A program made the position numbers and the translations under genes. A stretch of DNA of 64,000 bases, from positions 8,249 to 72,248 of the forward strand of contig JAQTXD010000004.1 of assembly GCA_028688955.1 (NCBI GenBank), read 5' to 3'. The notes beneath the pieces are model-generated. The model saw nothing but the letters and a program-made list of their open reading frames with translations, had not been told where the DNA came from and made no database searches. The DNA is from Desulfuromonadaceae bacterium. Its GTDB lineage: Bacteria > Desulfobacterota > Desulfuromonadia > Geobacterales > Pseudopelobacteraceae. This document shows positions 7,823 to 55,286 of the stretch, piece after piece (the first letter of the stretch is position 1; each line of letters starts with the position of its first letter).

Positions 7823-8410
7823 ATGAGTGAGGTGGAACGATTAATCGGCTGCGGTATTCTTGGCAAGGAGATTCGTTATCTGGCCGAAAAAAACGGCTGG
7901 AATCTGGCGATGACGTTTCTCCCCTCCGGCCTGCACGTAGACTTTGGAAAACTTCGCATTTCTCTGGAAAAAACGTTACAATTTCATGCCGGTGAGGCTG
8001 CCGTTGTATTTTACGGTGCCTGTCATCCCTGCATGGAGCATATTCTGGATGCTGCCCATGTTATCCGCACCGCGGGCCAGAATTGCGTTGATATCTACCT
8101 GGGACACGAGATGTTCTGTCGCGAGCTGGAGCAGGGCGCGTTTTTTTTGTTTGAAGATTGGGCGCTGCACTGGGACACTATTGTCGGTGCTGTTATCCCG
8201 GGCAGCCCGGAAATAATGCGGAGCATTTTCCGCGGTGCCCATACCTATATACTGGCGATTCGCACCCCCTGCTCGGCTGATTTCAGTGCTGAGGCGGAGG
8301 CCGTGAGCGCCATGACGACACTTGACCTGCGCTGGGTAGACGTAGGGCTTGAACATCTCGAAGCAAATCTTGTGGAGACGCTTTTCCGCGCTAAGGCAGG
8401 AGCACAATGA
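7823..8410 (+). CDS. DUF1638-like protein (family usually found beside corrinoid methyltransferase genes)
   Basis: 195 aa. Recognised from memory of the family (about 200 aa, conserved Cys/His-containing segments such as FYGACHPCMEHIL) and from its classical position after a corrinoid/URO-D pair. Needs HMM confirmation. Confidence 0.55.
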   Translation: MSEVERLIGCGILGKEIRYLAEKNGWNLAMTFLPSGLHVDFGKLRISLEKTLQFHAGEAAVVFYGACHPCMEHILDAAHVIRTAGQNCVDIYLGHEMFCRELEQGAFFLFEDWALHWDTIVGAVIPGSPEIMRSIFRGAHTYILAIRTPCSADFSAEAEAVSAMTTLDLRWVDVGLEHLEANLVETLFRAKAGAQ

Positions 8411-10869
8411 TACCTGACGGACAACTCACCCATGAAAAAATTGCTGAACTCGAACAGCGCATTTCTGAATTGGCGCAAAGCAAGGCGCGGCTTGAACTGC
8501 TTAACCGTCTGCTGACCAGTCTCAGTGAAGTTGCCGGACTTGATAACATGGTGCAGCATATTCTCAACGTCCTGATGCAGACCATTGGTGCGGCCAATAT
8601 ATCGATAATTTTCCGGGTGGGCGACAATTGGCGGTACCGGGATGTCTTCGGGGCGAGCGGACTGTTTCAGGAATCCGACAACCCGGATGTCGTCACCGCG
8701 CTGGCCGACGGCAAACCGGTGCGGATCAGCCAGGGCGTACTGCAGGACGTATCCGCCGGTGAAGCCGATTTGATACAGGTAGAGGAGTGGATATATCCGC
8801 TGGTGTCTCAGGAACGAAAAATTGGTGCCATCTGCATGGACGGTATGCAGTTCTCCGATACCGGTATCTTCAAGGAACTCATCCCCTTTTTCGTGTATGC
8901 CGGTCTGATGCTGGACAACGAAATTTCAAATTATTCCCTTCTGTCGGAAGCGCACCAGCGTCTGCAGGATTCGGAAACCCTCTACCGGACCCTGTTTGAC
9001 GAGTCGCCGGCAGGAGTAGTGCTCTGGAGCGTTCCCGATCTCAGGCCGCTGCAGTTCAATACTGCAGCCCATGCACAGCTTGACTATACCCGGGAAGAGT
9101 TTGCCGGCCTGACCGTCTCGGATTTTGAAGCGGCCAAGAGTGCAGCTGATATGGAAGATACCTCTGTAATCCTGCGGCGGGACGGGATTGTCAATTTTGA
9201 GACGATACATCGAACCAAGGGGGGTGATATCCGCTCGATGGCTATTACCCTGCGGATGATCGAATTGAGTGGAGAGCCGTGTGTCATCGCACTGCACCGG
9301 GATATTACGGAAATGAACCGGACACGGGCCTCTTTGGAGGAGAATCGCCGGTTTCTGGCCGATATTATCGAATACAGCGGCATGCTGATAGCGGTTAAGG
9401 ATCGGGAGGGGCACTATGAGATAGTCAACCGGAAATGGGAGGAAGTTACCGGACTGTCTCGCAGTGAAGCCATTGGCAAAACTGATGAAGAGCTGTTTCC
9501 CGGATCGAGTGGCAAACTGTTCCGGGCAAACGATCTGGAAGTTATTGAGGGGGATTGCTGCATCGAGAGGGAGGAATACTTTGATGATGCCGTGAAAGGC
9601 CGCCAGTATGGAATTTCGACAAAGTTTCCCCTGAAAGCCGCAGACGGCACGATCAGTGGGCTCTGTCTCATGAGTACGGATATTACAGACCGGAAGCGTT
9701 CGGAGGAAGAGCGGCTGAATCTTGAAAAACAGCTCCTCCATTCACAGAAACTTAAAAGCCTGGGCGTGTTGGCCGGCGGCATTGCCCATGACTTCAACAA
9801 CATCCTCACCGCCATCATCGGCAATGCCGATCTGGCCCTGATGCGCATCAACAAGGAATCACCGGCGGTGGACAACCTGCATCGCATTGAACATGCCGCC
9901 GCCCGTGCGGCCGACCTCGCCAAACAGATGCTTGCCTATTCCGGAAAGGGCAAGTTCGTGGTCGAGAATATAAACCTGAACGTCCTGCTGGAAGATATGC
10001 TGCACATGCTGGAAGTCTCCATTTCAAAAAAAGCGGTGCTGCGGCTCAACCCCCATCAGCAACTCCCGGTGGTAGAGGCAGATGCGACCCAGATCCGCCA
10101 GATCGTCATGAATCTGGTGATCAACGCTTCGGAAGCGATTGGTGACAAAAGCGGCGTTATTGCCATTACAACCGGATGTATCGACTGTAACCGGAATTAT
10201 CTGGAAGATGTCTGGCTGGATGAGAATCTGAACGATGGTCTGTATGTGTATCTGGAAATTGCTGATACCGGATGCGGCATGGATAAGGAGACTCTGTCCA
10301 AGCTGTTTGATCCTTTTTTTACGACGAAATTTACCGGTAGAGGTCTTGGTATGGCTGCTGTACTCGGTATCGTACGAGGGCACAAGGGTGCTATCAAGGT
10401 TTACAGCGAGCAGAATAAAGGCACCACCTTCAAGATTCTGCTTCCTTCATCTGGCAAACCGCCCGAAGTTTTCAACGGTACCTCTCCCGGCAACGCATGG
10501 CACGGCAACGGGGTTGTACTGCTGGTCGATGACGAAGAAACCATTCGTGGCCTCGGCATTCAGATGTTGAAAGAGATCGGCTTTAGCGCCATCACCGCCG
10601 ATGACGGCAGAGAGGCGCTGGAGATTTTCAAATCCAGGGATGACATTGCTTTTGTTATCCTTGATCTTACCATGCCGCATATGGATGGCGAGCAATGTTT
10701 CCGTGAGTTACGGCAGCTGAATCCGGACGTCAAGGTAATCATGTCCAGCGGTTTTAACGAGCAGGAAGTGACGCAGAAGTTCATCGGCAAGGGGTTGGCC
10801 GGCTTCCTGCAGAAACCGTATAAGCTGTCGACACTCCAGTCTACGATTCAAAAAGTATTAAAACAGTAA
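8407..10869 (+). CDS. Cytoplasmic hybrid sensor histidine kinase (coiled coil, GAF, PAS, PAS, HisKA, HATPase_c, receiver)
   Basis: 820 aa with no TM segment. GAF-like N-terminal region, then two PAS-like segments (YRTLFDESPAGVVLW; FLADIIEYSGMLIAVKD). The H-box, ATPase and receiver are near-identical to those of the 3503-6121 kinase. ATGA overlap with the DUF1638 gene. Confidence 0.85.
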   Translation: MIPDGQLTHEKIAELEQRISELAQSKARLELLNRLLTSLSEVAGLDNMVQHILNVLMQTIGAANISIIFRVGDNWRYRDVFGASGLFQESDNPDVVTALADGKPVRISQGVLQDVSAGEADLIQVEEWIYPLVSQERKIGAICMDGMQFSDTGIFKELIPFFVYAGLMLDNEISNYSLLSEAHQRLQDSETLYRTLFDESPAGVVLWSVPDLRPLQFNTAAHAQLDYTREEFAGLTVSDFEAAKSAADMEDTSVILRRDGIVNFETIHRTKGGDIRSMAITLRMIELSGEPCVIALHRDITEMNRTRASLEENRRFLADIIEYSGMLIAVKDREGHYEIVNRKWEEVTGLSRSEAIGKTDEELFPGSSGKLFRANDLEVIEGDCCIEREEYFDDAVKGRQYGISTKFPLKAADGTISGLCLMSTDITDRKRSEEERLNLEKQLLHSQKLKSLGVLAGGIAHDFNNILTAIIGNADLALMRINKESPAVDNLHRIEHAAARAADLAKQMLAYSGKGKFVVENINLNVLLEDMLHMLEVSISKKAVLRLNPHQQLPVVEADATQIRQIVMNLVINASEAIGDKSGVIAITTGCIDCNRNYLEDVWLDENLNDGLYVYLEIADTGCGMDKETLSKLFDPFFTTKFTGRGLGMAAVLGIVRGHKGAIKVYSEQNKGTTFKILLPSSGKPPEVFNGTSPGNAWHGNGVVLLVDDEETIRGLGIQMLKEIGFSAITADDGREALEIFKSRDDIAFVILDLTMPHMDGEQCFRELRQLNPDVKVIMSSGFNEQEVTQKFIGKGLAGFLQKPYKLSTLQSTIQKVLKQ
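9679..10827. repeat. Copy 2 of the ~1.15-kb paralogous duplication (transmitter plus receiver module)
   Basis: See 4892-6040. Same length and no indels detected by eye along the protein alignment. Confidence 0.8.
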
Positions 10870-10937
10870 CGACTATTTCAAACGTTTGTCCCACGTGGCA
10901 CGGCTCATGCTATCTCCCGGTACAGGGGGATACATTT

Positions 10938-11504
10938 ATGAGTAGATCAATACTGATTTGTGATGACGAACCGCTCATCAGAACGAACCTGAAGAGTATG
11001 TTGGTTGATCTCGGTTTTGATGAGATCCTGGAATGCGGAGACGGCGCAAAAGCCGTTGAGCTGGCGTTGGCAAGCTTTCCCGATATTGCGATTCTTGATG
11101 TTTCCATGCCCGGAATGGATGGCATAAGCGCTGCGATCGAGATCAGAAAAAAACTGAAAATCCCCATCATGCTGCTGACCAGCGCCTGTGACGGCGCGAC
11201 TGTAAAACGGGCATCTGCAAGCGGGATTGCCGCTTATTTAACCAAACCCCTCCGCCAGCAGGACCTGTTGCCTGCCATAGAGATAGCCCTGCAGCACACA
11301 GAAGCGATTGAAGAGTTGAAAGAAAAAATCGATGATCTGCACGAGCTGATTGAGAATCGTAAGGTCATTGAAAAAGCCAAGGGTTTGATAATGGAAAAGA
11401 ACCACTTGTCTGAGGCGGAGGCGTATCGCGCCATGCAGAAAACGGCAATGGACAAGCGGAAAACTCTGCTGCAGGTTGCAGGGGGCATTTTGAAGGAAGG
11501 GTAG
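10938..11504 (+). CDS. ANTAR-domain response regulator (receiver plus RNA-binding antiterminator output; AmiR/NasT/GnfR type)
   Basis: 188 aa. Receiver: ILICDDEP...ILDVSMPGMDG...TKP. A coiled linker is followed by an ANTAR helix bundle: RKVIEKAKGLIMEKNHLSEAEAYRAMQKTAMDKRKTL. Confidence 0.85.
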   Translation: MSRSILICDDEPLIRTNLKSMLVDLGFDEILECGDGAKAVELALASFPDIAILDVSMPGMDGISAAIEIRKKLKIPIMLLTSACDGATVKRASASGIAAYLTKPLRQQDLLPAIEIALQHTEAIEELKEKIDDLHELIENRKVIEKAKGLIMEKNHLSEAEAYRAMQKTAMDKRKTLLQVAGGILKEG

Positions 11505-11507
11505 CCA

Positions 11508-11547
11508 TTCACACAGAGACGCAGGCGGTAGCAGGCGCCTCTGTGTG
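11508..11547. terminator. Intergenic hairpin between the convergent ANTAR regulator and draG genes (possible bidirectional terminator)
   Basis: TCACACAGAG (11508-11517) pairs perfectly with CTCTGTGTGA (11538-11547). No clear T-tract follows. Confidence 0.4.
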
Positions 11548-11570
11548 ATCAATTTAGAACAGTTACATCA

Positions 11571-12491
11571 TTAAAATCTTCTCCCCGCCGGGCTCTCCGC
11601 AATCAGACGTTCTGCCACGATCTCAATTTCAGCAATCACTTTTGCATCCATTTTCTTTATCCAGCGTTTCGGTATTCCCTCCATGCCGTAATAGGCACCT
11701 GCCAGCATCCCGCAGATGGCACCGGTCGTATCGGCATCGGCACCTTGATTGACGGTTCCAACCAGGCACTCTTCAAAGCTCTTCCCCCGGAAAAACCAGT
11801 GAAACACCGTCTGCATGGTATCAACTACATAACCGGTCGCAAGGCCGCGGTACGGTTCAAAGTTGAACGTTGGAAATCTGAGCAGCAGTCCGTCAACATG
11901 GCGGCGCAGACGGCTTTTTTCCGCTCCGCAGAGCGCCATGTGCAGAAGTTGCCCCAGGCAGAGGCAGGCGGCATCGGATACCGGGTTGTTATGGGTGATG
12001 TGGGCCTGCTCGATGACATACTGTTTGAGCAGCTCACCATCAGGGAGAGAAAAGAGGACTGCGGGAAGGAGGCGCATGGCAGCGCCGTTGCCGGCATCCC
12101 ACTCGTTTTGCGGTGCTTCCAGTCGTCCGTGGAGAAGATAGGCGCGGATGCCCTTGCGGCAGGTATCGCCGCAGTCAACCGGACGTGACTTGAGCCAGGC
12201 GGCAAAGTTGTCAGCGACCGCCGTCAGTGACCATCCCTGACTTTTAATAATAGCCCGGGCGATACAAAGCGCCATTTCGGTATCATCAGTGACCTGTCCC
12301 GGCTTTAAACGCAGCCAGCCACCGCCGATAATGTCACGGAATGTGCCGTATTTTGAAGCAATCTCAGAGGCGGTCATGAATTCGACCGTGGCACCCAGAG
12401 CATCACCGATCGCCATACCGATAAAGGCGGCCCGTGCACGGTCGTGAATTTCTTCAAGGTTGTACTGGATAAACATGGGTACCCCATACAT
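11571..12491 (-). CDS. draG: ADP-ribosyl-(dinitrogen reductase) glycohydrolase DraG
   Basis: 306 aa. Long blocks match my recollection of Rhodospirillum rubrum DraG: GDALGATVEFMT, GGGWLRLKPGQVTDDTEM, WLKSRPVDCGDTCR, DAGNGAAMR, ITHNNPVSDAAC, YVVDTMQTV, NQGADADTTGAICGMLAGAYYG. An alternative start lies at 12476. Confidence 0.8.
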   Translation of the reverse strand: MYGVPMFIQYNLEEIHDRARAAFIGMAIGDALGATVEFMTASEIASKYGTFRDIIGGGWLRLKPGQVTDDTEMALCIARAIIKSQGWSLTAVADNFAAWLKSRPVDCGDTCRKGIRAYLLHGRLEAPQNEWDAGNGAAMRLLPAVLFSLPDGELLKQYVIEQAHITHNNPVSDAACLCLGQLLHMALCGAEKSRLRRHVDGLLLRFPTFNFEPYRGLATGYVVDTMQTVFHWFFRGKSFEECLVGTVNQGADADTTGAICGMLAGAYYGMEGIPKRWIKKMDAKVIAEIEIVAERLIAESPAGRRF

Positions 12492-12702
12492 TAAAAACAG
12501 TGAGTAGTTGAGTAACGGAGAAAATCTCCCTGCAAGGAATACTCCGACACCAATATGCTTAAATTGTGTGCACTTTGTGTACGGGAAGGAGACGGTACGC
12601 TGTTTACACTGACAAACAATTGCGCTCAGTGTTTCTGCCAGGTTTTGTCTGATGCTCAGTTGCCCTGTGTTTTAAAGGGTTTGATGTGTTGTCCTGGCAA
12701 GA

Positions 12703-12718
12703 TGGCACACTCTATGCT
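12703..12718 (+). promoter_or_regulatory. Sigma-54 (-24/-12) promoter of the nifB operon
   Basis: TGGCAC-ACTCT-ATGCT against consensus TGGCAC-N5-TTGCW. The GG/GC spacing is correct, and the element lies 79 nt upstream of the nifB ATG. Confidence 0.7.
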
Positions 12719-12735
12719 CTATCAACTTCAGCAAT

Positions 12736-12747
12736 GGCAACGACGCC
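12736..12747 (+). promoter_or_regulatory. Candidate ANTAR-target stem-loop (3-bp stem, hexaloop AACGAC) overlapping the 5' arm of the leader terminator
   Basis: GGC-AACGAC-GCC has A at loop position 1 and G at position 4, as in described ANTAR substrates. Its 3' half (12743-12747) is also part of the terminator stem. A convincing second hexaloop hairpin was not found. Confidence 0.3.
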
Positions 12748-12780
12748 CGCGGGATTTTTCCTGTGGGCGTTTTTTATTTT
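12743..12780 (+). terminator. Intrinsic terminator inside the nifB 5' leader (attenuator)
   Basis: ACGCCCGCGGG (12743-12753) pairs with CCTGTGGGCGT (12760-12770): 11 bp including 2 G-U pairs. The loop is ATTTTT and TTTTTATTTT follows. The element lies between the sigma-54 promoter and the nifB start codon at 12797. Confidence 0.7.
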
Positions 12781-12796
12781 GGAAGGAGCATAAATT

Positions 12797-13666
12797 ATGG
12801 CAACTGCATGTGAAATGAAGGACAAAATCCAGGGACATCCCTGCTTCGGCGGTAACCATCACAAAAACGGCCGTATGCATCTGGCCGTGGCGCCCAAGTG
12901 CAATATCAAATGCGGCTATTGCTCACGCAAGCACGACTGCGCCAACGAATCACGCCCCGGCGTTACCAGCCGTATTCTTACTCCTCAGGAAGCGATTGAA
13001 AAAGTGCGGGAAGTCATGGCCAGCCCGATCGCCGGTCCGATTATCAAGGTTGTCGGTATCGCCGGTCCCGGAGATCCGCTTGCCAACGAAGAGACCTTTG
13101 AGACCTTTGAGATGGTTAAAAAAGAATTTCCCCACCTGATGCTCTGCCTCAGCACCAATGGGCTGCTGCTGCCGGAATCAATAGACCGTCTGTATGAAAT
13201 GGGGTTGCACAGTCTGACTGTTACCATTAACGCAGTCGACCCGGAAATCGGTGCCCAGATTTACCGCCATGTTATCTATCACGGTACGCATTACACTGGT
13301 GTTGAAGGGGCAGAAATACTTATCGCCAACCAGTTTGCGGGGCTCAAGCGGGCGGGTGGACTTGGTCTCACCATAAAGGTTAATTCGGTCCTCATACCGG
13401 GAGTCAACGACGATCAGCTGCCGTTGATAGCCAAACGGGTCAAGGAGTTGGGGGCTTTCGTCATGAATATCATGCCGATTATTCCCCAGGCTGAACTGGC
13501 ACACATTGTACCACCAACCGAGGAGCGTGTCGCGGCACTCCGTTCAGCGAACGAGAACATTATCGGTCAATTTGCCCATTGCAAGCAGTGCCGTGCCGAT
13601 GCGATCGGCCTAATCGGTCAGGACCTCAACGTAACAATAGCCGAGGCGGCTTGTCCGACGCCATGA
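12797..13666 (+). CDS. nifB: Nitrogenase FeMo-cofactor biosynthesis radical SAM protein NifB (short form, radical SAM domain only)
   Basis: 289 aa. HPCFGGNHHKNGRMHLAVAPKCNIKCGYCSRKHDCANESRPGV is the NifB signature, including the CxxxCxxC cluster. There is no NifX-like C-terminal extension. Confidence 0.9.
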   Translation: MATACEMKDKIQGHPCFGGNHHKNGRMHLAVAPKCNIKCGYCSRKHDCANESRPGVTSRILTPQEAIEKVREVMASPIAGPIIKVVGIAGPGDPLANEETFETFEMVKKEFPHLMLCLSTNGLLLPESIDRLYEMGLHSLTVTINAVDPEIGAQIYRHVIYHGTHYTGVEGAEILIANQFAGLKRAGGLGLTIKVNSVLIPGVNDDQLPLIAKRVKELGAFVMNIMPIIPQAELAHIVPPTEERVAALRSANENIIGQFAHCKQCRADAIGLIGQDLNVTIAEAACPTP

Positions 13667-14484
13667 CAATTGAACCGTTCTGCACAGAGGAGATACCGGC
13701 ATTCCTGGCTTTGGCGGAAGCTGAACAGTGGGTGGCAGAATCATGGGAATTTGAATTTCTTCTCTCTGCGTTCCCCCAGGGGTGCTTTACCGCACGTGGG
13801 AGTGATGGAGAAGCGGTTGGATTTGTAACCTCTCTGCATCATCGGCTGAGCGGATGGATCGGCAATCTGATCGTTGCGGGGGAACAGCGGGGGAAGAGGA
13901 TCGGGCAACGGCTGTTTGGTGCCGCTCTTGAGGCACTTCGCGGGGCCGGTGCTGAAACGTACTGGCTGACCGCCTCTAAATCAGGTCAACCGCTCTATGA
14001 AAAGTATGGATTTACCCGTACTGATACCATCATCCGCTGGATCGGTAAAGGACGCCAGAAGCATGGTGGGCTCAATGATTTCGGATCAGGCACTCTGAAT
14101 GCCCCGGCCATCGATCTCGACCGCCTCTCCTGGGGCGATCAGCGAGACATGCTGCTGGCAGCGACAGTGGGGCGGGGGAACGTATTACAGGATGAATCAG
14201 GTTTTATTTCACTGCAGCCGTGTGGCGATTCGGTACAGATCGGGCCGTTTGCCGCAGGCAGCGTGAAATGTGCGGAGCATCTTTTTGAGGACGCCATCAG
14301 AACCGTTGCATTGGGCACAAAGATTGTACTGGATGCGCCCGTTTCAAACCGGGCGGCGCTCCGAATTTTCAACCATGGGAAAATGAGGATAGCAGGAAGT
14401 ACCGAACTGATGTATGCGGGCAGGAAACCTGACTATCGACCGGAGTTGGTTTACGGGCTGGCAACGATGGGGAGCTGCGGGTAG
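13663..14484 (+). CDS. GNAT-family N-acetyltransferase (GNAT domain plus C-terminal extension)
   Basis: Start chosen at ATG 13663, which forms an ATGA overlap with the nifB stop. The track ORF from 13579 would overlap nifB by 88 nt. The acetyl-CoA motif region is IVAGEQRGKRIGQRLF (Q/RxxGxG/A type). Confidence 0.7.
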   Translation: MTIEPFCTEEIPAFLALAEAEQWVAESWEFEFLLSAFPQGCFTARGSDGEAVGFVTSLHHRLSGWIGNLIVAGEQRGKRIGQRLFGAALEALRGAGAETYWLTASKSGQPLYEKYGFTRTDTIIRWIGKGRQKHGGLNDFGSGTLNAPAIDLDRLSWGDQRDMLLAATVGRGNVLQDESGFISLQPCGDSVQIGPFAAGSVKCAEHLFEDAIRTVALGTKIVLDAPVSNRAALRIFNHGKMRIAGSTELMYAGRKPDYRPELVYGLATMGSCG

Positions 14485-14511
14485 CTGCGGTACCTCAAGG
14501 GGGAGGAAATC

Positions 14512-15657
14512 ATGAACGGACGACATGACATTATAATTGACGACACGACCCTTCGCGACGGAGAACAGACCGCCGGAGTGGTTTTTTCAAAGCGCGAAAA
14601 AATAGCGATTGCCCGCATGCTCGACTCCATTGGAGTTGGTGAGATTGAGTGCGGAATCCCGGCAATGGGGAAAGAAGAACAGGACAGTATTCGTACGCTC
14701 GTTGATCTGGGCTTGAATGCCCGTCTGATTACCTGGAACCGGGCGCTGGTGCCTGAAATACAGGCGAGCATCGCCTGCGGTGTGCAGGCGGTAGACATTT
14801 CGCTTTCCGTATCAGACCAGATGATCGTTCACAAACTGCGTAAAGACCGCGAGGCGGTCAGAGAACAGTTGAAGGTCGCCCTCGGTTTTGCAAAACAGCA
14901 TAATCTCTATGTGTCCGTCGGCGGTGAAGATGCCAGCCGTGCAGACATGGCTTTCCTGGTTGAACTGATGGAAATTACCCGCACCCTGGGCGGTGATCGT
15001 TTCCGTTTCTGTGACACCCTGGGTATACTGGATCCGTTTACCATGTTTGACAAAGTATCGTTTCTGCGAGCGGCGGTACCTGATGTCGATATCGAAGTGC
15101 ACACCCACAACGACCTGGGGATGGCAACAGCCAACGCCATTGCCGGTATCCGTGCCGGTGCGAAGTTTGTCAACACGACGATTAACGGCCTGGGTGAGCG
15201 GGCGGGAAACGCAGCGCTTGAAGAGGTCGTAATGGGATTGAAGCATGCCTGCGGTATTGAAACCGGCATAGACACCCACCGTTTTCGTGAAATGTCACTG
15301 TTTGTTGCCAAAGCGTCCGATCGGCCGCTCTCCGCTTCCAAGCCGGTGGTCGGGTCACGGGTCTTTGCGCATGAATCGGGACTTCATGCCGATGGTATCA
15401 TCAAAGACCCACGCAATTATGAAGGGTTTGACCCGGCGGATGTCGGCTCGTCCCGCAGTATTCTGGTTGGCAAACATTCCGGCACCGGTGGCCTGATCGA
15501 ACGTTATCGCAGTATGGGTATTACGATTGGCCGTAAACAGGCGGATGTGCTCCTGGAACGTACGCGAAGCATGTCATGCACCCGCAAACGTGACCTGACA
15601 AATTGTGAATTGATGGCCATTTATTTTGGCGAAGAAGGGCTGCCGAAGGCAGCATAA
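14512..15657 (+). CDS. nifV: Homocitrate synthase NifV
   Basis: 381 aa. IIDDTTLRDGEQTAGVVF and HTHNDLGMATANAIAG are HMGL-like/IPMS-family motifs. The length and nif context fit NifV. Confidence 0.85.
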   Translation: MNGRHDIIIDDTTLRDGEQTAGVVFSKREKIAIARMLDSIGVGEIECGIPAMGKEEQDSIRTLVDLGLNARLITWNRALVPEIQASIACGVQAVDISLSVSDQMIVHKLRKDREAVREQLKVALGFAKQHNLYVSVGGEDASRADMAFLVELMEITRTLGGDRFRFCDTLGILDPFTMFDKVSFLRAAVPDVDIEVHTHNDLGMATANAIAGIRAGAKFVNTTINGLGERAGNAALEEVVMGLKHACGIETGIDTHRFREMSLFVAKASDRPLSASKPVVGSRVFAHESGLHADGIIKDPRNYEGFDPADVGSSRSILVGKHSGTGGLIERYRSMGITIGRKQADVLLERTRSMSCTRKRDLTNCELMAIYFGEEGLPKAA

Positions 15658-15668
15658 GGGGAGAGACC

Positions 15669-15905
15669 ATGTGTGAAGCGGGAACTAATTTTGTTGCGAT
15701 TGCCGATGCGGCGCAACTGTTGGAAACAACCGAGGTGCGGGTGCTGATGATGCTCAAGAAAGATGAGCTGCAGGGGAAGCAGGTGGATGGCGCATGGTAT
15801 GTCGACAGGTCATCGCTGAAACTCTGTGAAAAACCGAAAGCTGCTGATATTGTCAGACCGGGCGGTTGCGGCGGCGGCTGCGGCAGCGGCTGCGGCGGGC
15901 ACTAA
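15669..15905 (+). CDS. Small excisionase/MerR-like HTH protein with a C-terminal Cys/Gly tail
   Basis: 78 aa. FVAIADAAQLLETTEVRVLMMLKKDELQGKQVDGAWYVDRSSL resembles HTH_17-type domains. The tail is RPGGCGGGCGSGCGGH, encoded by a GGC/TGC triplet tract at 15861-15900. GGGGAGAG RBS. Lies 11 nt after nifV. Confidence 0.5.
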   Translation: MCEAGTNFVAIADAAQLLETTEVRVLMMLKKDELQGKQVDGAWYVDRSSLKLCEKPKAADIVRPGGCGGGCGSGCGGH

Positions 15906-15919
15906 ACAGCGGAGGGCCT

Positions 15920-16210
15920 ATGCCACTCATTGTCAAAGCATCTGATTTTAAATTTAAATATCCACGGGACATTGAAAATCGCGAACAGCCCAAGTTCATC
16001 GGTCTGCCTGACCCTGCTCCGTTCAACCGCGATGACCTCTATGATATTCTGCCGATGATGACCGCTGTCATGGAAGAACTGGGGAGCGAGGATGGCGAGG
16101 TTCTGAACCTCCTGGAAGACCTGCTGAACCAGATGCCGCGATTTGTTTCCACCCGTGGCGAGGTGTTCGATTACCTGCAGGGATCGGCGAGGGAATGCTT
16201 GAGACCGTAG
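15920..16210 (+). CDS. Hypothetical protein (96 aa), family not recognised
   Basis: Start chosen at ATG 15920 behind a GGAGGG RBS. The track start at 15866 would overlap the previous gene and adds an Arg-rich junk-like N-terminus. The stop overlaps the macrodomain gene start by 16 nt. Confidence 0.45.
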   Translation: MPLIVKASDFKFKYPRDIENREQPKFIGLPDPAPFNRDDLYDILPMMTAVMEELGSEDGEVLNLLEDLLNQMPRFVSTRGEVFDYLQGSARECLRP

Positions 16211-16626
16211 GCGATATCTGGGAATACATATCTGCAGGCATAATTGCGATCACAACCAACGGGTCGCTCACCGGGAATGGGCGGGCGATCTTTGGCCGTG
16301 GGGTGGCGAGACAGGCGTCACGTAGATATCCGCAGCTGGCTGAAAAATTAGGCACATTGCTGGCAGAACAGGGCAGCCACGTGTTTGACCTTGGTTGCGG
16401 TATTGTTACTTTTCCGGTTGAGGAAACGCCCTGGTCGCTCCCGGACCTGCGCATCATCGCACGCTCAGCCCAGGAATTACGGGCATTGGCTGATATATGC
16501 GGATGGCAGCATATTATTGTTCCCCGACCGGGTTGCGGTGGCGGGGGTCTTGCATGGAGAGATGTACGGCCGCTGCTTGAGCCATGGTTTGACGAACGTT
16601 TTATCGTTATCAGCCAGCAGGAATAA
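16195..16626 (+). CDS. Macrodomain protein, TARG1/OARD1-like (predicted ADP-ribose binding or ADP-ribosyl hydrolase)
   Basis: 143 aa. GDIWEY...IAITTNG...GRGVARQ...VPRPGCGGGGLAWRDV parallels, from memory, the human TARG1 pattern GDLF...MPRIGCGLDRLQWENV. Confidence 0.65.
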   Translation: MLETVGDIWEYISAGIIAITTNGSLTGNGRAIFGRGVARQASRRYPQLAEKLGTLLAEQGSHVFDLGCGIVTFPVEETPWSLPDLRIIARSAQELRALADICGWQHIIVPRPGCGGGGLAWRDVRPLLEPWFDERFIVISQQE

Positions 16627-16698
16627 ATTAATACCTGCTGACTATTCTGAACAGGTATGTATATTTAGACTGAAATTTATGAACAAAAGGAGTGCGCC

Positions 16699-18144
16699 AT
16701 GTCCAACGCCGGTCTTCAGGGGAACAAACCCCGCACCCCCTATCACGAGTTTTACGCTGATGATTTCACGCCTCGTGACCACTACCGGCTGTTGTGGGAT
16801 AATATCAGGGCCACCGGTAACAGTGCCCTTGAGGCAAAAGCCCACGAGTCGCAGCTGGCGCTGCAGGCTGAGGGTGTAACCTTCACGGTATATGGGGAGA
16901 GTGAGGAAGGGATCGAACGCATCTGGCCCTTCGACCTGATCCCGCGCATCATTACCGCCCAGGAGTGGGTCAAGATCGAACTGGGTCTTAAACAGCGGGT
17001 GCGGGCTCTGAACCACTTCCTCGGGGATCTCTACGGCGAACAGCGCATAATCAAGGACGGGGTCATACCCCCGGAGCTTATCTATCAGGGGCGGGACTTC
17101 CGTCGTGAGATCGTCGGCATCGTGCCGCAGCGGGGGATCTATACCCATGTCAGCGGTATTGATATTATCCGTGATGAAAAAGGTGAGTTCCTGATTCTTG
17201 AAGATAATCTGCGTACACCATCCGGTGTCTCCTATATGATCGAGAACCGGGTCATAGAGCGGCGGATCATGCCGGAATTTTTCAATAAATACCGCGTACG
17301 CCGTGTTGAACACTACCCGTCCCTGCTGCTCGCCGCCCTGCGCGGGCTCTCACCGCGCGGTAAGGACAACGCCGAGATCGTGCTGCTGACCCCCGGTATC
17401 TACAACTCGGCCTATTTCGAGCACACCTTCCTTGCCAAGGAAATGGGTATTGAACTGGCCGAGGGGCGTGACATGGTCGTGGTCAACGATATTGTCTACC
17501 TGAAAACCACTACCGGTCTGCAACGGGTGGACGTGATCTACCGCCGTATCGACGATGATTTTCTTGATCCACTGGTGTTCCGCTCTGACTCCTCCCTGGG
17601 CATCGCCGGGGTAATTAATGCCTGGAGGGCGGGGAACGTTGCGATTGTCAATGCACCCGGCAGCGGCATTGCCGATGATAAGGCGGTGTACCCGTACGTG
17701 CCGGACATTATCCGCTACTACCTCGGCCAGGAACCGATCCTCAATAATGTGCATACCTACCAGATGACCAACAAGTCAGATCGTGAGTATGTTTTCGACA
17801 ACATGGAGCGGATGGTGATCAAGGCGGTCAGCGAATCCGGTGGCTACGGCATGCTCATGGGACCTTCATCGACCCCCGCTTCGCGGAAAGAGTTCATGGA
17901 TCTGGTGCTGGAGAATCCGCGCAACTATATCGCCCAGCAGGTTGTCTATCTCTCCCGTCACGTCTGCTATATGGATGGTGAGCTGGAAGCCAGGCATCTG
18001 GATCTGCGTCCGTACGTGATTTATGGCGACGATATTGAGGTCGTTCCTGGTGGGCTGACCAGGGTGGCACTTCGCAAGGGTTCGCTGGTTGTTAACTCAT
18101 CTCAGGGTGGCGGCAGCAAAGATACGTGGGTATTGGCTGAGTAA
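16699..18144 (+). CDS. Circularly permuted ATP-grasp type 2 protein (COG2308-type amidoligase)
   Basis: 481 aa. Its N-terminus, length and position upstream of alpha-E and transglutaminase genes match the conserved COG2308-COG2307-COG1305 triad. Confidence 0.8.
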   Translation: MSNAGLQGNKPRTPYHEFYADDFTPRDHYRLLWDNIRATGNSALEAKAHESQLALQAEGVTFTVYGESEEGIERIWPFDLIPRIITAQEWVKIELGLKQRVRALNHFLGDLYGEQRIIKDGVIPPELIYQGRDFRREIVGIVPQRGIYTHVSGIDIIRDEKGEFLILEDNLRTPSGVSYMIENRVIERRIMPEFFNKYRVRRVEHYPSLLLAALRGLSPRGKDNAEIVLLTPGIYNSAYFEHTFLAKEMGIELAEGRDMVVVNDIVYLKTTTGLQRVDVIYRRIDDDFLDPLVFRSDSSLGIAGVINAWRAGNVAIVNAPGSGIADDKAVYPYVPDIIRYYLGQEPILNNVHTYQMTNKSDREYVFDNMERMVIKAVSESGGYGMLMGPSSTPASRKEFMDLVLENPRNYIAQQVVYLSRHVCYMDGELEARHLDLRPYVIYGDDIEVVPGGLTRVALRKGSLVVNSSQGGGSKDTWVLAE

Positions 18145-18158
18145 GGAGGAGGAATATC

Positions 18159-19094
18159 ATGTTAAGTCGTATAGCCGATTCTATGTATTGGATGGCCCGT
18201 TATCTGGAGCGGGCCGGGGAAACCGCCCGTCTGATGGAGATCAACCTGCTCTATCTGGTTGAGGCGGAAGAGGATATGGGCGAAGAGGACAAATGGCGGC
18301 CGATCCTGCAGATAAACTCATCGGAGCCGCTCTATGACGAACAGTTCGGCGGCGGCATCAGTACGCCGCGCGTGTTGCAGTTTATCAGTGCCGGACGTTC
18401 AAATCCCAGCTCCATCCGCACCTGCCTGCGTCTTTTCCGGGAGAATGCCCGGGTTGCGCGCGATCGCATTTCCAAAGAGATGTGGGAGGCGGTCAATGAA
18501 ATCTGGATGAACTTTGACGAACGGCTGAAGGGATCATTGACTCCTGAACGGGCCGGAGCCATTTTTGTTGAGTTACGCAACCAGGTGGCGCGCTTTAACG
18601 GATTGGTTGCCTCCACCATGATGCGTGGCGAGGCGTATGCGTTCTACCAGCTGGGGGGATGTCTCGAACGTGCCGACATGACCGCCCGTACACTTGATAT
18701 CAAGTATCATATTATTCTGCCTGATCTCTCCATGGTTGGATCTGCGCTAGACTATTACCAGTGGGCTGCCCTGCTCAAATCATTGTCCGGATTCGAAGCG
18801 TTCCGGCGCAATTACCATTCTGCCTTCATGCCGGCAGACGTCGCCGAATTTGTTGTTCTTAACCGTGAATTCCCCCGGTCGATCGTTTTTTCCGTGAAGC
18901 ATATGGGCGGGGCCCTGCAGGCGATTGGCCTGGAGAACAAGGCGGCGACCGAGGCGGCGTTTCAGAGTCTGAGTGAATCGGTAGAGGTGACCGTGAAGCA
19001 GATATTCGATAACGGTCTGCACGAATACCTGGATGAATTGCTGCGACGACTGTCACTGCTCCACGGTGCTCTGGCGGAAGAATTTTTTCAATAG
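18159..19094 (+). CDS. Alpha-E domain protein (COG2307)
   Basis: 311 aa. The N-terminus MLSRIADSMYWMARYLERAGETARL is the characteristic alpha-E family start. Confidence 0.8.
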   Translation: MLSRIADSMYWMARYLERAGETARLMEINLLYLVEAEEDMGEEDKWRPILQINSSEPLYDEQFGGGISTPRVLQFISAGRSNPSSIRTCLRLFRENARVARDRISKEMWEAVNEIWMNFDERLKGSLTPERAGAIFVELRNQVARFNGLVASTMMRGEAYAFYQLGGCLERADMTARTLDIKYHIILPDLSMVGSALDYYQWAALLKSLSGFEAFRRNYHSAFMPADVAEFVVLNREFPRSIVFSVKHMGGALQAIGLENKAATEAAFQSLSESVEVTVKQIFDNGLHEYLDELLRRLSLLHGALAEEFFQ

Positions 19095-19191
19095 GGGGGA
19101 CACCGCGCGTGCCCTCGATGCAACATCCCGGTGTCGGTAACTCCGGGGCGGTGTGCTGCTGTTGCCGTACCTGAAACCAGAGGAGAAGTAC

Positions 19192-20070
19192 ATGCGGTAT
19201 CTTATAGAACACGAAACGATCCTTGAGTATCCTCAGATGGTCCGTGAACATCATGTTGAGCTGCGTCTGGCACCACGCGCGGACGGGCATCAAAAGGTTC
19301 TTTCCTGCGCCATGGAAACGGAACCGGACGCAGAAATGGCGTCCTATTTCGATTATTTTGGTAATCGGGTGGATTATTTCTGCGTGATCCAGCCACACAC
19401 CCGTCTCGTGACGCGTTTGAAGAGCGAAGTGGAAACCCTGCAGCAGAACCCGTTCAATTTTGAGGCGATAGCAGCAGTCGACGAACAGGAATGGTTGCAA
19501 AAAACAATTCGGCGCACCCCTCCGATGAACGATTATGTTCTTCATCGCAGTCTGTTGACACCGTCAGCTATGAAGCTGGCCGAAGCGGTCGCGTGTGCTT
19601 TCCCAAGACGTGATAGCGAGCAACCGGTGCTGGATTCGCTTATGGCGTTGCTGGAGTGGGTACCATCGGTGCTGGAGTATCGATCCGGCAGTACTGAGGT
19701 CCACGGCTCATTAACCGCTGCTGTGCGTCAGGGGGGCGGAGTCTGCCAGGATTTTGCCCATCTTTTCATCACTGTGGCACGCTCATGGGGAGTTCCCGCT
19801 CGCTATGTCATGGGGTATCTTGATCCCGGCATCAGTCAGGTTGGTGAACCGCTGGCAACCCACGCCTGGGCAGAGGTTCTGGTACCGGGTGCCGGATGGA
19901 TCGGCTTTGACGCAACCCATAACCTGTTGGCGAATGATCACTATGTAGCGGTTGCGGTCGGTCGGGACTCCTACGATGCTGCACCCCAACGTGGCAGCTT
20001 TAAAGGGGAGCCATCAGGTGAACTGCCGACAGTAACAGTAACGATGCAGGGACAGGGCCAGGAACAGTAG
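19192..20070 (+). CDS. Transglutaminase-like cysteine peptidase family protein (Bact_transglu_N plus transglutaminase core)
   Basis: Start chosen at ATG 19192 behind a GAGGAG RBS (MRYLIEHET...). The catalytic Cys context is GGGVCQDFAHLF, with His/Asp in HAWAEVLVPGAGWIGFDATHN. Confidence 0.85.
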   Translation: MRYLIEHETILEYPQMVREHHVELRLAPRADGHQKVLSCAMETEPDAEMASYFDYFGNRVDYFCVIQPHTRLVTRLKSEVETLQQNPFNFEAIAAVDEQEWLQKTIRRTPPMNDYVLHRSLLTPSAMKLAEAVACAFPRRDSEQPVLDSLMALLEWVPSVLEYRSGSTEVHGSLTAAVRQGGGVCQDFAHLFITVARSWGVPARYVMGYLDPGISQVGEPLATHAWAEVLVPGAGWIGFDATHNLLANDHYVAVAVGRDSYDAAPQRGSFKGEPSGELPTVTVTMQGQGQEQ

Positions 20071-52526: not shown

Positions 52527-55286
52527 TTAGTTGTGCGCCAGTTTCTGTGCCTCCTTGGCGTTTGCCTGAAACAGGTTGGCGGTTTCGAATACCAGGTTGA
52601 GAGTACCGCGGTAACCGACCCACATTTTCTGGTGGGACCCAAGCCGGTCGAATACCGGCAGTCCGGCCCGCAGGTGTGCGCCGATTTTGAGCTTGCCGGC
52701 TGCCTGGCGACCATTTGAGTTGGCCACAATCATATCGGCGCCAACCGCTGCCACTTCCAGATCCTCTAAATCCCCGACACTGACATTCGCGCTGGGAAGG
52801 TCATGCAGGCCACGGGTGCGGGTAGCAGACAGCGCCGCCTGTATGTCACATCCCATACCGGCGAGGAAGTTGGTCAATGTTTTGAGGTTGTCAGACTCCA
52901 GAGCGAGTGCAACTTTTTTATTACCGAACTGATAGTGGCTATCAACCATGGCGTCCATCAGGCGGCTGCGCCAGCGGCGATGTTTATCCGGGATCGGACA
53001 GCTGCTGATTGCGGCAAGGACCTGCATGAAACGGTCGGTCTCTGCCAGTCCGGTCAGTGAGGTGAAGCCGTAGGCCGGGACAGCGAATTTTTCCTTCAGC
53101 TTGAGAGCCGCCTTGGCCAGTGAATCGCCGATGTACAGCGTTGCGCAGCTGCGCCCGGCTTTTTTGAGGTCAGTAATTGTAATGCCGCCGGTTGACAGCG
53201 GTGAGACAACTTCGTCGATATGGCCGTCCATGGCATTGGAAATATCAGGAATTGTCAGCACTGTCAGCCCGAATGATTCAACCAGCTCTTTGAGTTCTTC
53301 CACATCCGCCGGGGTCAGATGGGCTCCGGGCAGCAGGTTTACCTGCCCCGCTATCGTACTGCCACCTTCCGGCAGACTGGAGACGATCGCCTCCACCGCG
53401 GCGGCGTATCCCTCCTGCATCGAACCGCAGTAATCAGGCGTAGAGGCCCAGATAACCGGGACAGAATCATGTTCCGGATGTTCCTCACGGAACTGCTTGA
53501 TGACGTTGTTGACGTCATCTCCCATTGTTTCCGTCAGTCCGGTTGTCATAACCCCGACCACTTCGGGATGAAACTTTTCTATTACCCGCCCGATCCCCTT
53601 TTTCAGATTTTCCCACCCGCCAAAAATTGCACTGTCCTCGCTCATGGCGGTGGCGTTCAGGGCGATTGATTCCTTGTAATGCCGTGACAATTGCAGTCGG
53701 ATAAAGGTTGAACACCCCTGGGCGCCATGGAGCAGGCCAAGCATGTTGTCGATCCCCAGATATGCCATGGTGGCGCCCAGCGCAGGTGAGTTTTTCTGCG
53801 GGTTGACCGTGGCACACTTCGTCGGCACTTTAACCCGGGAGGCAGATATGTCTTCAGCCAGAAATGTTTCAGCATGACAGGCGCTTGCTGCCAGATCGGC
53901 TGCCAATTCATCATCCTTTTTCTCCCAGGGTGCAGGTTTGTTCAGCACCGGCCAGATCGGATTGTTGACAGTCATATCAAGCTGCCGTGAAAACGTCACC
54001 ATCCCCTCATAGCCGGCATAGGGGTGCGAGCGCCCATGGTTTATGTCCATAAACGGGGTCTTGGTTTTGAGCGCCAGAAACTTCGTCTTGCCGCCGGCCA
54101 CAATCAGGTCGGGCATTTTTGCATGCATAACCGCCAGCAGTCCTGCTGTTGAGGTGTCTTCAATGATGTGGGCATCCTTGTGCATCAACCCCTTCATGCG
54201 GTAGAAATCTTCCAGGGTCGAATTCTGGGTGCCGGCGGCGAGTACTTCCACCCCCAGCTCGCGGAGGGAGTTGACCATCGACCAGGTTTTTACCCCGCCG
54301 GTAAACAGCACTGATGTTTTACCTTCCAGTCTGGCCCGATAGGGAGCAATGGCCGTCCGGCACTTATTCTCTTCTTCCTCGATGAGACGTTCGACCCGGT
54401 CCTGCATGGTCCGCTTTTCCAGACCATTGACAATGTTGTCCAGTTCACGGGCGATATCACGAAGCGCTTTGGCAGTGTCGGTCATGCCGTAGAATGATTC
54501 TTCCAGGTAGGGCATGCCGTAAGTTCTCTGCATCTTTTTGGCAAGATTGGTAAGTGATTTGGAACAGATGATGATGTTAAGTTTGGCCCGGTGGGCGTAG
54601 CGCAGCTCCTCAAATTTGGAATCGCCGCTGAAGCAGGAAAGAACCTGGATTCCCAGTTTGTCAAAAAGCGGCAGCATGCCCCACAAATCTCCGGCAATAT
54701 TGTATTCACCAATGAGGTTAATCGGGTATTCACCCAACGTCGGCGGTTCGGTCGTGCCGATCACGTATTTGAACAGGATCTCGCCGGCAAGACGATTGCC
54801 GATATTCTTGTCGCCGATAAAGCCGGGCGTGTTGACCGGAATAATCGGGATGGCAACTTTGTCCTGGGCAGCCGCACAAACAGACTCCACATCGTCACCG
54901 GTCATGGCGGTAACGCAGGTAGCATAGACGAAGATGGCTCGTGCCTGAACCTTGTACCGTTCAGCCAGGTCGAGGATCGCCTTGTAAAGTTTCTTCTCAC
55001 CGCCGAAAATAACATCATTTTCAAGCATTTCGGTTGTAAAGCCGCGGCGGTAGAGCTGGGCGTCCGAGGAGCGCGCACCCCGGTTGTCCCAGGAGTTGCC
55101 GGCACAGCCGATCGGGCCGTGCACCAGATGGATGGCGTCGGTGATCGGCATCAGTACGACCCGTGCACCATCATAGGCGCAGGAACGTTCGGTGCCTTCT
55201 CCCGGTTCAGATTTTTTGCAGAATTTGGGTGCACCCTTGTCGTTAGTTTCGCAATCGGTTACATCGTAATAGTCGGGTTTAGCCAT
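52527..55286 (-). CDS. nifEN: Fused NifE-NifN nitrogenase FeMo-cofactor assembly scaffold
   Basis: 919 aa. The N-terminal half is NifE-like (CAYDGARVVLMPITDAIHLVHGPIGCAGNSWDNRG). The C-terminal half is NifN-like (NPQKNSPALGATMAYLGIDNMLGLLHGAQGCSTF). It is a single uninterrupted frame with a GGAGA RBS. Confidence 0.9.
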   Translation of the reverse strand: MAKPDYYDVTDCETNDKGAPKFCKKSEPGEGTERSCAYDGARVVLMPITDAIHLVHGPIGCAGNSWDNRGARSSDAQLYRRGFTTEMLENDVIFGGEKKLYKAILDLAERYKVQARAIFVYATCVTAMTGDDVESVCAAAQDKVAIPIIPVNTPGFIGDKNIGNRLAGEILFKYVIGTTEPPTLGEYPINLIGEYNIAGDLWGMLPLFDKLGIQVLSCFSGDSKFEELRYAHRAKLNIIICSKSLTNLAKKMQRTYGMPYLEESFYGMTDTAKALRDIARELDNIVNGLEKRTMQDRVERLIEEEENKCRTAIAPYRARLEGKTSVLFTGGVKTWSMVNSLRELGVEVLAAGTQNSTLEDFYRMKGLMHKDAHIIEDTSTAGLLAVMHAKMPDLIVAGGKTKFLALKTKTPFMDINHGRSHPYAGYEGMVTFSRQLDMTVNNPIWPVLNKPAPWEKKDDELAADLAASACHAETFLAEDISASRVKVPTKCATVNPQKNSPALGATMAYLGIDNMLGLLHGAQGCSTFIRLQLSRHYKESIALNATAMSEDSAIFGGWENLKKGIGRVIEKFHPEVVGVMTTGLTETMGDDVNNVIKQFREEHPEHDSVPVIWASTPDYCGSMQEGYAAAVEAIVSSLPEGGSTIAGQVNLLPGAHLTPADVEELKELVESFGLTVLTIPDISNAMDGHIDEVVSPLSTGGITITDLKKAGRSCATLYIGDSLAKAALKLKEKFAVPAYGFTSLTGLAETDRFMQVLAAISSCPIPDKHRRWRSRLMDAMVDSHYQFGNKKVALALESDNLKTLTNFLAGMGCDIQAALSATRTRGLHDLPSANVSVGDLEDLEVAAVGADMIVANSNGRQAAGKLKIGAHLRAGLPVFDRLGSHQKMWVGYRGTLNLVFETANLFQANAKEAQKLAHN

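Follow-up and report, generated by a model that had tools for sequence, protein, structure and literature searches.

A predicted GnfR-type transcription attenuator with a single hexaloop hairpin in the nifB leader of an uncultured Desulfuromonadaceae bacterium

The DNA analysed here, referred to below as the window, is a stretch of 64,000 nucleotides (nt) from an uncultured Desulfuromonadaceae bacterium (assembly GCA_028688955.1, contig JAQTXD010000004.1, forward-strand positions 8,249 to 72,248; coordinates are those of the window unless another contig is named), and the element of interest is the leader of its nitrogen-fixation gene nifB. This gene (12797..13666, forward strand) codes for a short form of NifB of 289 amino acids (aa), which lacks the C-terminal NifX-like domain, carries a Radical_SAM domain and matches TIGR01290 with E = 8e-102 over profile positions 4-283 of 441. 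It is followed on the same strand by the genes for a GNAT acetyltransferase and the homocitrate synthase NifV, and is preceded by the divergent draG and, beyond it, by the gene for a GnfR orthologue of 188 aa (10938..11504, forward strand), a response regulator in which a receiver (REC) domain is joined to an ANTAR RNA-binding domain (Pfam Response_reg, E = 8e-24; ANTAR, E = 2e-18). The leader itself comprises 69 bases with a sigma-54 promoter, one small predicted protein-binding hairpin and a transcription terminator overlapping that hairpin. To judge from these features, it is very probably a transcription attenuator of the type governed by GnfR in Geobacter sulfurreducens, controlling the nifB-GNAT-nifV operon.

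The nifB promoter (TGGCACACTCTATGCT, 12703..12718, forward strand) is an exact TGGCAC-ACTCT-ATGCT, with its GG at 12704-5 and its GC at 12716-7 in the canonical -24/-12 spacing. Exact matches to TGGCAC-N5-WTGCW number two in the 64-kb window against 0.26 expected (two were reached in 4 of 100 shuffles), and both are intergenic and directed at a gene, one at 10896-10911 before the ANTAR gene and the other at 12703-12718 before nifB. Transcription is predicted from the promoter position to start near 12729, and leader positions are counted from a +1 taken as 12 nt past the C of the -12 element. The predicted antiterminator or GnfR-binding hairpin, GGC-AACGAC-GCC (12736..12747, forward strand), then spans about +8 to +19, with a 3-bp stem and a hexaloop bearing A at its first and G at its fourth position (A1 and G4). 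The intrinsic terminator stem-loop (12742..12771, forward strand) has 13 pairs (12742-12754 with 12759-12771), a UUUU loop and a U-tract, TTTTTTATTTT, at 12770..12780 (forward strand); its stem would end 43 nt from the predicted +1. A Shine-Dalgarno AGGAG (12784..12788, forward strand) lies 8 nt before the nifB ATG, and GGAAGGAG is kept at this place across the genus. The terminator is the top-ranked terminator-like site within 8000-20000. A role as the 3' terminator of a neighbouring gene is out of the question, since draG runs divergently and it is the start of that gene, not its end, that adjoins the leader.

The hairpin and the terminator compete for the same bases. Loop bases 12742-12744 and the 3' arm 12745-12747 of the hairpin are the first six bases of the terminator 5' arm, and the leader as a whole has a minimum free energy (MFE) of -28.8 kcal/mol (z = -4.3), a stability that none of 200 shuffles attains. 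The small hairpin alone has an energy of -3.6 kcal/mol in ViennaRNA, and it is the MFE structure of the nascent RNA up to 12748; the 13-bp terminator prevails, at about -25 kcal/mol, as soon as its 3' arm has been transcribed. Enforcing it raises the energy of the structure from -25.4 to -13.8 kcal/mol and leaves only a 7-bp stem (12748-12754 with 12759-12765), with six unpaired bases between it and the U-tract. By what is established about intrinsic terminators, such a geometry is incompatible with termination. Since the terminator outcompetes the unbound hairpin while a held hairpin blocks the terminator, the default state would be off, and the phosphorylated regulator would turn nifB on. 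Most of these elements had been picked out in the original prediction, which was made from the letters of the window. Its promoter coordinates are exact, the hairpin with A1 and G4 is present as it described, and its 11-bp stem with a T-rich tail at 12743-12780 exists (12743-12753 with 12760-12770) and can be extended to 13 pairs. The ATG that it assigned to nifB at 12797 is correct, being preceded by AGGAG and followed by a product that matches TIGR01290. Its view that the hairpin and the terminator share an arm and exclude each other agrees with the use of 12742-12747 by both and with the folding it had proposed, and the ANTAR response regulator it placed 1.2 kb away is the REC-ANTAR gene at 10938-11504, upstream of the leader.

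The elements of this leader have published counterparts. In G. sulfurreducens, nitrogen-fixation genes are transcribed from RpoN promoters activated by GnfL/GnfM (Ueki & Lovley 2010, PMC2995071), and leader terminators are present at nifH, nifEN-nifX, the Gsul_0938-glnK-amtB operon and the Gsul_2799 operon, the last of which encodes a putative radical SAM protein and a putative acetyltransferase (PMC2995071). The nifH terminator, the one leader for which this was shown, is functional in a reporter when placed behind a heterologous promoter, and read-through at nifH needs gnfK and gnfR (PMC2995071). GnfR (REC-ANTAR, GSU2822) binds RNA with CAGGCAANGGCGCC only when phosphorylated by GnfK (GSU0941), a kinase with no sensor domain (PMC2995071). 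From its sequence, the published GnfR box is GGC-AANGGC-GCC, a hexaloop hairpin of the ANTAR type in which both A1 and G4 are present. In the window, 12734-12747 reads ATGGCAACGACGCC and matches 10 of the 13 specified bases of CAGGCAANGGCGCC, with the core GGCAA-N-G-N-CGCC intact, and the hairpin at 12736-12747 matches 10 of the 11 specified bases of the published site GGCAANGGCGCC. The pairing of nifB with GNAT recurs in the Geobacter target operon, and relatives show it in synteny; PMC2995071 names the radical SAM gene of that operon, Gsul_2799, to which the nifB of the window is orthologous.

Conservation was studied in nifB leaders extracted from 30 related genomes, the closest of which are metagenome-assembled genomes (MAGs) labelled Geobacteraceae, Desulfuromonadaceae or Desulfuromonadales. 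Promoter, box and terminator are kept in all 16 leaders of the genus and in one from another family, and these 17 were aligned, as the original prediction had recommended. All 17 have a promoter of the form TGG(C/T)A(C/T)-N5-(A/G)TGC(T/C/A), and GGCAA, G17 (the loop G4) and GCC are invariant, which covers the stem, loop A1-A2 and G4. The terminator helix is paired in 95.6% of the alignment cells, as against 43-56% when the partners are slid, and 5 of its 12 pairs have changed on both sides. Of the 16 genus leaders, 14 have the hairpin starting between +6 and +9; the remaining two have it at +15 and +23. None of the 16 has a second hexaloop hairpin between promoter and terminator, so that the single hairpin noticed at the outset is a feature of the lineage; with a start at about +8, there is no room before it for an additional hairpin (P1) and a linker of 5-12 nt.

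Other families of the same relatives show more elaborate leaders. In one of them, f2, the nifB leader (loci L023-L025 and L028) has a P1, CGC-AAYGRC-GCG, at +5/+6, a linker of 9-15 nt and a second hairpin (P2), GGC-ACYGCR-GCC, overlapping the terminator, which on the predicted folds is the textbook dual-hexaloop arrangement. In families f3 and f4, two complete modules stand in tandem before nifB in three genomes (L018, L019 and L022). The nifH leaders of five families keep GGC-AA(A/U/G)GGC-GCC and a terminator, and they differ in a similar way (loci L126, L129, L131, L135, L145 and L146): a lone GGC-AAAGGC-GCC in the genus, UAC-AYWGAC-GUA followed by a 10-nt linker and P2 in f2, and, in f3 and f4, a GnfR box preceded by a hairpin of 5-6 bp whose hexaloop is GNNGNN.

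The same module recurs within the genome itself. Whole-genome scans for the box fused to a downstream hairpin place it before six genes, as GGCAA-N-G-N-CGCC, GUC-AAAGGC-GAC or GGC-AAUGGA-GCC; a U-tract follows the hairpin in five of them, nifK2 being the exception, and five lie behind a sigma-54 promoter with a score of 9-10 of 11. Besides nifB, with 18 bases from the -12 GC to the hairpin, these are nifH (C135:1621, 6.6 kb before the window; GGC-AAAGGC-GCC, 57 bases), nifX (contig C105; GGC-AAAGGC-GCC, 33 bases), a second nifK, nifK2 (C140:2408; GGC-AACGGC-GCC with a weak U-tail, 43 bases), a unit of a 72-aa open reading frame (ORF) and a TIGR01616 nitrogenase-associated protein (C120:24121; GGC-AAUGGA-GCC with a 15-bp terminator and no promoter found within 90 nt), and an SsuA/urea-type ATP-binding cassette (ABC) substrate-binding protein gene (C188:48365; TGGTACGGCATTTGCT with GUC-AAAGGC-GAC and a terminator, 17 bases). 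The last two are candidate members of the regulon beyond the published Geobacter list. No convincing second A1/G4 hairpin was found in any of the six leaders; AGA-AUCGGU-UUU in the nifH leader, considered as a P1, is weak and is absent from the nifH leaders of relatives. A covariance model built from the 17 nifB leaders (R1) recovered only the nifB site in this genome, being too specific for the nifB terminator, and was not used to define the regulon.

In the proposed mechanism, sigma-54 polymerase aided by an enhancer-binding protein would start at about 12729 under nitrogen limitation, and the first structure to leave the polymerase would be the 3-bp hexaloop hairpin at +8 to +19. Without protein, the 13-bp terminator would take over the loop and 3' arm of this hairpin, and transcription would stop in the U-tract before the ribosome-binding site. 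When the REC-ANTAR regulator is phosphorylated, an ANTAR dimer would, by analogy with EutV, clamp the hexaloop, contacting A1 and stacking a tyrosine on G4; the clamped hairpin would withhold 12742-12747 from the terminator and the polymerase would read into nifB. On another contig, beside glnK-amtB, lies the gene of the probable phosphodonor, a 260-aa sensor-less kinase. That these steps also take place in this organism, from this start site and with this kinase, we infer from sequence and from the analogy with Geobacter. The GnfR-type logic put forward in the original prediction is thereby supported at the level of sequence, as the published system has the same elements and an orthologous operon.

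The ANTAR domain of the regulator is the sole one of the genome (a 3.95 Mb assembly, 99% complete), and the protein aligns over its full length with Rv1626 (1s8n, E = 4e-41) and EutV (6wsh/6ww6, E = 3e-34). Across their full length, it and the REC-ANTAR genes of four sister families that share a ~3.9-kb locus with nifH are 59-64% identical, its orthology to GnfR having been gauged against these genes; the nifH of G. sulfurreducens is GSU2821. In its EAY motif, a tyrosine aligns with the tyrosine of EutV and Rv1626, and, assuming an offset of two residues between chain index and residue number, this would be the tyrosine that stacks on loop G4 in the EutV-RNA structure (PMC8934654). The gene has a sigma-54 promoter of its own (TGGCACGGCTCATGCT, 10896..10911, forward strand), an exact TGGCAC-N5-WTGCW match 27 nt before the ATG at 10938.

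Which kinase feeds the regulator is the point at which a rival account retains most weight. A hybrid kinase of 820 aa (GAF-PAS-PAS-HisKA-HATPase-REC, 8407-10869) is encoded on the same strand and ends only 68 nt before the regulator gene, a proximity which suggests that this kinase, fed by the corrinoid cassette upstream of it, might control the regulator and hence nifB in place of a GnfK-like enzyme. We regard this as doubtful. Within the 68-nt gap lies a sigma-54 promoter that belongs to the regulator gene, and the kinase is upstream of gnfR in none of 13 related MAGs that keep gnfR (only one of the 13 has any kinase there, with 29% identity), while draG-nifB-GNAT follows gnfR in seven; on the first two grounds, the adjacent kinase is probably not the partner of the regulator. 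Moreover, a sensor-less HisKA-HATPase kinase of 260 aa is encoded outside the window (C94:115763-116545, reverse strand), directly after glnK-amtB, and both its position and its architecture match those of G. sulfurreducens GnfK (GSU0941), which lies beside the Gsul_0938 glnK-amtB operon. By this architecture and synteny, the 260-aa protein is the probable, GnfK-like phosphodonor of the regulator.

The leader itself could be read in other ways. The terminator might be a fixed, unregulated attenuator that damps nifB, or one overridden by something other than an ANTAR protein, with the 12-mer merely part of it; the 3' half of the 12-mer does belong to the terminator stem, and this explains part of its conservation. 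Yet GGCAA lies 5' of the terminator stem and is still invariant in the 17 nifB leaders, it recurs before terminators of differing sequence at nifH, nifX and other nitrogen genes, and in G. sulfurreducens the binding of RNA by GnfR requires this box and read-through requires gnfK and gnfR (PMC2995071), all of which make this account unlikely. Less likely still is that the box acts as DNA, as an operator to which a repressor or activator binds. Its place at +8 to +19, just past the start site, is one where repressors can act, and GGC...GCC is a short inverted repeat, but the symmetry is limited to the three outer bases, in every case the box is on the sense strand and fused to a terminator while its distance past the -12 GC varies from 17 to 57 nt, and the published binding is to RNA (PMC2995071). 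Finally, although a 3-bp A1/G4 hexaloop overlapping a terminator is by itself only weakly improbable (by our estimate, a 3-bp stem with two fixed loop bases is expected at ~2% of terminators) and a loose genome scan gave 75 such overlaps, mostly in irrelevant places, chance overlap with an ordinary hairpin is scarcely credible when near-identical boxes occur at six nitrogen-related leaders of one genome and are conserved across five families. It is on this recurrence and conservation, and not on the chance estimate for a single site, that we judge the hairpin to be real. One of the overlaps of the loose kind, at C94:39881 before a DEAD-box helicase gene, has neither a GGCAA box nor a sigma-54 promoter and looks like the terminator of the preceding gene.

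Several observations weigh against the attenuator reading and temper our confidence in it. The start site is a prediction, and the reading as a whole is built on sequence and on the Geobacter homologue. The hairpin stem has merely 3 bp and is invariant in the genus, hence without covariation there; alternative stems elsewhere (GUC/GAC, CGC/GCG and GGC/GCU) come in part from searches that demanded pairing and count as illustration, not as proof. At the gathering threshold, Rfam 15 gave zero matches over the whole window, and the ANTAR-target model that the original prediction had proposed to apply found nothing on the nifB leader; a permissive scan of 12600-12900 returned chance-level matches only (E >= 0.28), such as those to the terminator-containing families trpB, PyrR and narK. 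A lone hairpin also leaves only ~30 nt of transcription time for the regulator to bind, and the EutV study argues for two successively bound hexaloops as a requirement of productive antitermination (PMC8934654). Further, the regulon departs from that of G. sulfurreducens at nifEN and at glnK-amtB. The leader of the nifEN fusion gene of the window (52527-55286, reverse strand) combines a sigma-54-like promoter (TGGCATGGCACGTGCT, 55419-55404) with a box of the GnfR type (GGCAAUGACGCU, 55364-55353), and no stable terminator follows the box, the leader folding no better than its shuffles (z = +1.6); it may have decayed from an attenuator, or may serve as a binding site in some other role. The glnK-amtB operon has a sigma-54 promoter with neither a box nor a leader terminator.

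As to the genes around the leader, draG (11571..12491, reverse strand; TIGR02662, E = 8e-137) is divergent from nifB, and the order gnfR-draG-nifB-GNAT is kept in seven related MAGs. The GNAT gene (Pfam Acetyltransf_1/18), predicted to be co-transcribed with nifB, has its longest ORF at 13579..14484 (forward strand), with a start at the ATG at 13663, overlapping the nifB stop, more likely than one at 13579; nifV (14512..15657, forward strand; TIGR02660, E = 5e-156) lies downstream in the same unit. The enhancer-binding sites that sigma-54 promoters call for were sought in a comparison of eight promoters: loose TGCATAAAAA-like words occur upstream of four of them (the ABC gene, nifEN, nifK2 and nifX) and may be sites of enhancer-binding proteins, a TGCAT-AAAA-ATGCA palindrome lies ~140-155 nt upstream of the sigma-54 promoter of the ABC gene (C188), and no convincing enhancer-type site was found upstream of nifB in this comparison. 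A molybdate-type ABC ATPase (ABC_tran and TOBE domains; L112, C135:331-1428) is encoded directly upstream of the nifH promoter, with nifHDK following, so that the main nitrogenase operon lies 6-7 kb ahead of the window. A second nifH (C89:3451-4311, 91% identical) and the second nifK (C140:2408), whose promoter is sigma-54-like, are found on small contigs. As two nifH copies are also present in several genomes of the genus, the duplicate nif genes look like paralogy, though contamination (5.9%) may also account for them.

The mechanism and its target operon were already described in 2010 in Geobacter, and the nifB leader is a new instance in an uncultured relative, in a minimal, one-hairpin form. 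The findings extend the GnfK/GnfR cascade to an uncultured Geobacteraceae/Desulfuromonadaceae genus and define its likely regulon from sequence alone. What makes the leader moderately interesting is that, at the 5' end of its sigma-54 transcript, an architecture with a single hexaloop is obligatory; in other respects it is ordinary. We incline, with some reserve, to the view that the GnfR regulon of this genus uses a single hexaloop hairpin, placed at nifB at +8 of the sigma-54 transcript. If a lone hairpin does suffice for co-transcriptional antitermination, this would contradict the need, derived from EutV, for two successively bound hexaloops, and it would provide a natural series of one- and two-hairpin leaders within one bacterial order in which to ask why P1 exists. 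The compact leader, with a single hexaloop within 43 nt, would be a clean substrate for the question of whether one hexaloop is sufficient.

The closest parallel is with the GnfK/GnfR system. In both, an RpoN promoter is combined with a leader terminator whose 5' arm is overlapped by a conserved box (CAGGCAANGGCGCC in G. sulfurreducens, AUGGCAACGACGCC in the window); likewise, the REC-ANTAR regulator has its own RpoN promoter, as reported for gnfR of G. sulfurreducens (PMC2995071), the targets include nifB (radical SAM) with an acetyltransferase, nifH and nifX, and a sensor-less kinase gene lies beside glnK-amtB. The two differ in that the glnK-amtB operon here lacks the module and nifEN lacks the terminator, and in the two additional candidate targets, the ABC binding-protein gene and the TIGR01616 gene. 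Variation is also seen among the relatives: gnfR is beside draG-nifB here and beside nifH in sister families, and a single module at +8 before nifB contrasts with the tandem modules of the three f3/f4 genomes. GnfR is not mentioned in the ANTAR literature represented by Ramesh et al. 2012, the 2022 paper on the structure of EutV or a 2025 review, and among the papers searched we found no mechanistic discussion of it beyond Ueki & Lovley 2010.

The canonical ANTAR substrates, those of EutV/eut, NasR/nasF and AmiR/amiE, comprise two hairpins, P1 and P2, with a short linker and A1/G4 hexaloops (Ramesh et al. 2012, PMC3369931), and both P1 and the 5-12 nt linker are required for induction by EutV (PMC3369931). 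The nifB leader resembles them in its A1/G4 hexaloop, its stem of at least 3 bp, a hairpin 3' side held in common with the terminator and a regulator that is a close homologue of EutV and Rv1626. It differs in having one hairpin, with P1 and the linker absent, and in its link to a nitrogen-fixation signal and a sigma-54 promoter. The crystal structure of EutV with RNA shows a single hexaloop contacted by one ANTAR dimer, and a minimal ANTAR motif of one hexaloop was proposed from it (Walshe et al. 2022, PMC8934654); this stoichiometry makes a lone hexaloop plausible as a full binding site. Lone hexaloops are, however, expected there mainly where a transcribing polymerase sets no time limit, whereas in the nifB leader a lone hexaloop would take part in a terminator decision made co-transcriptionally.

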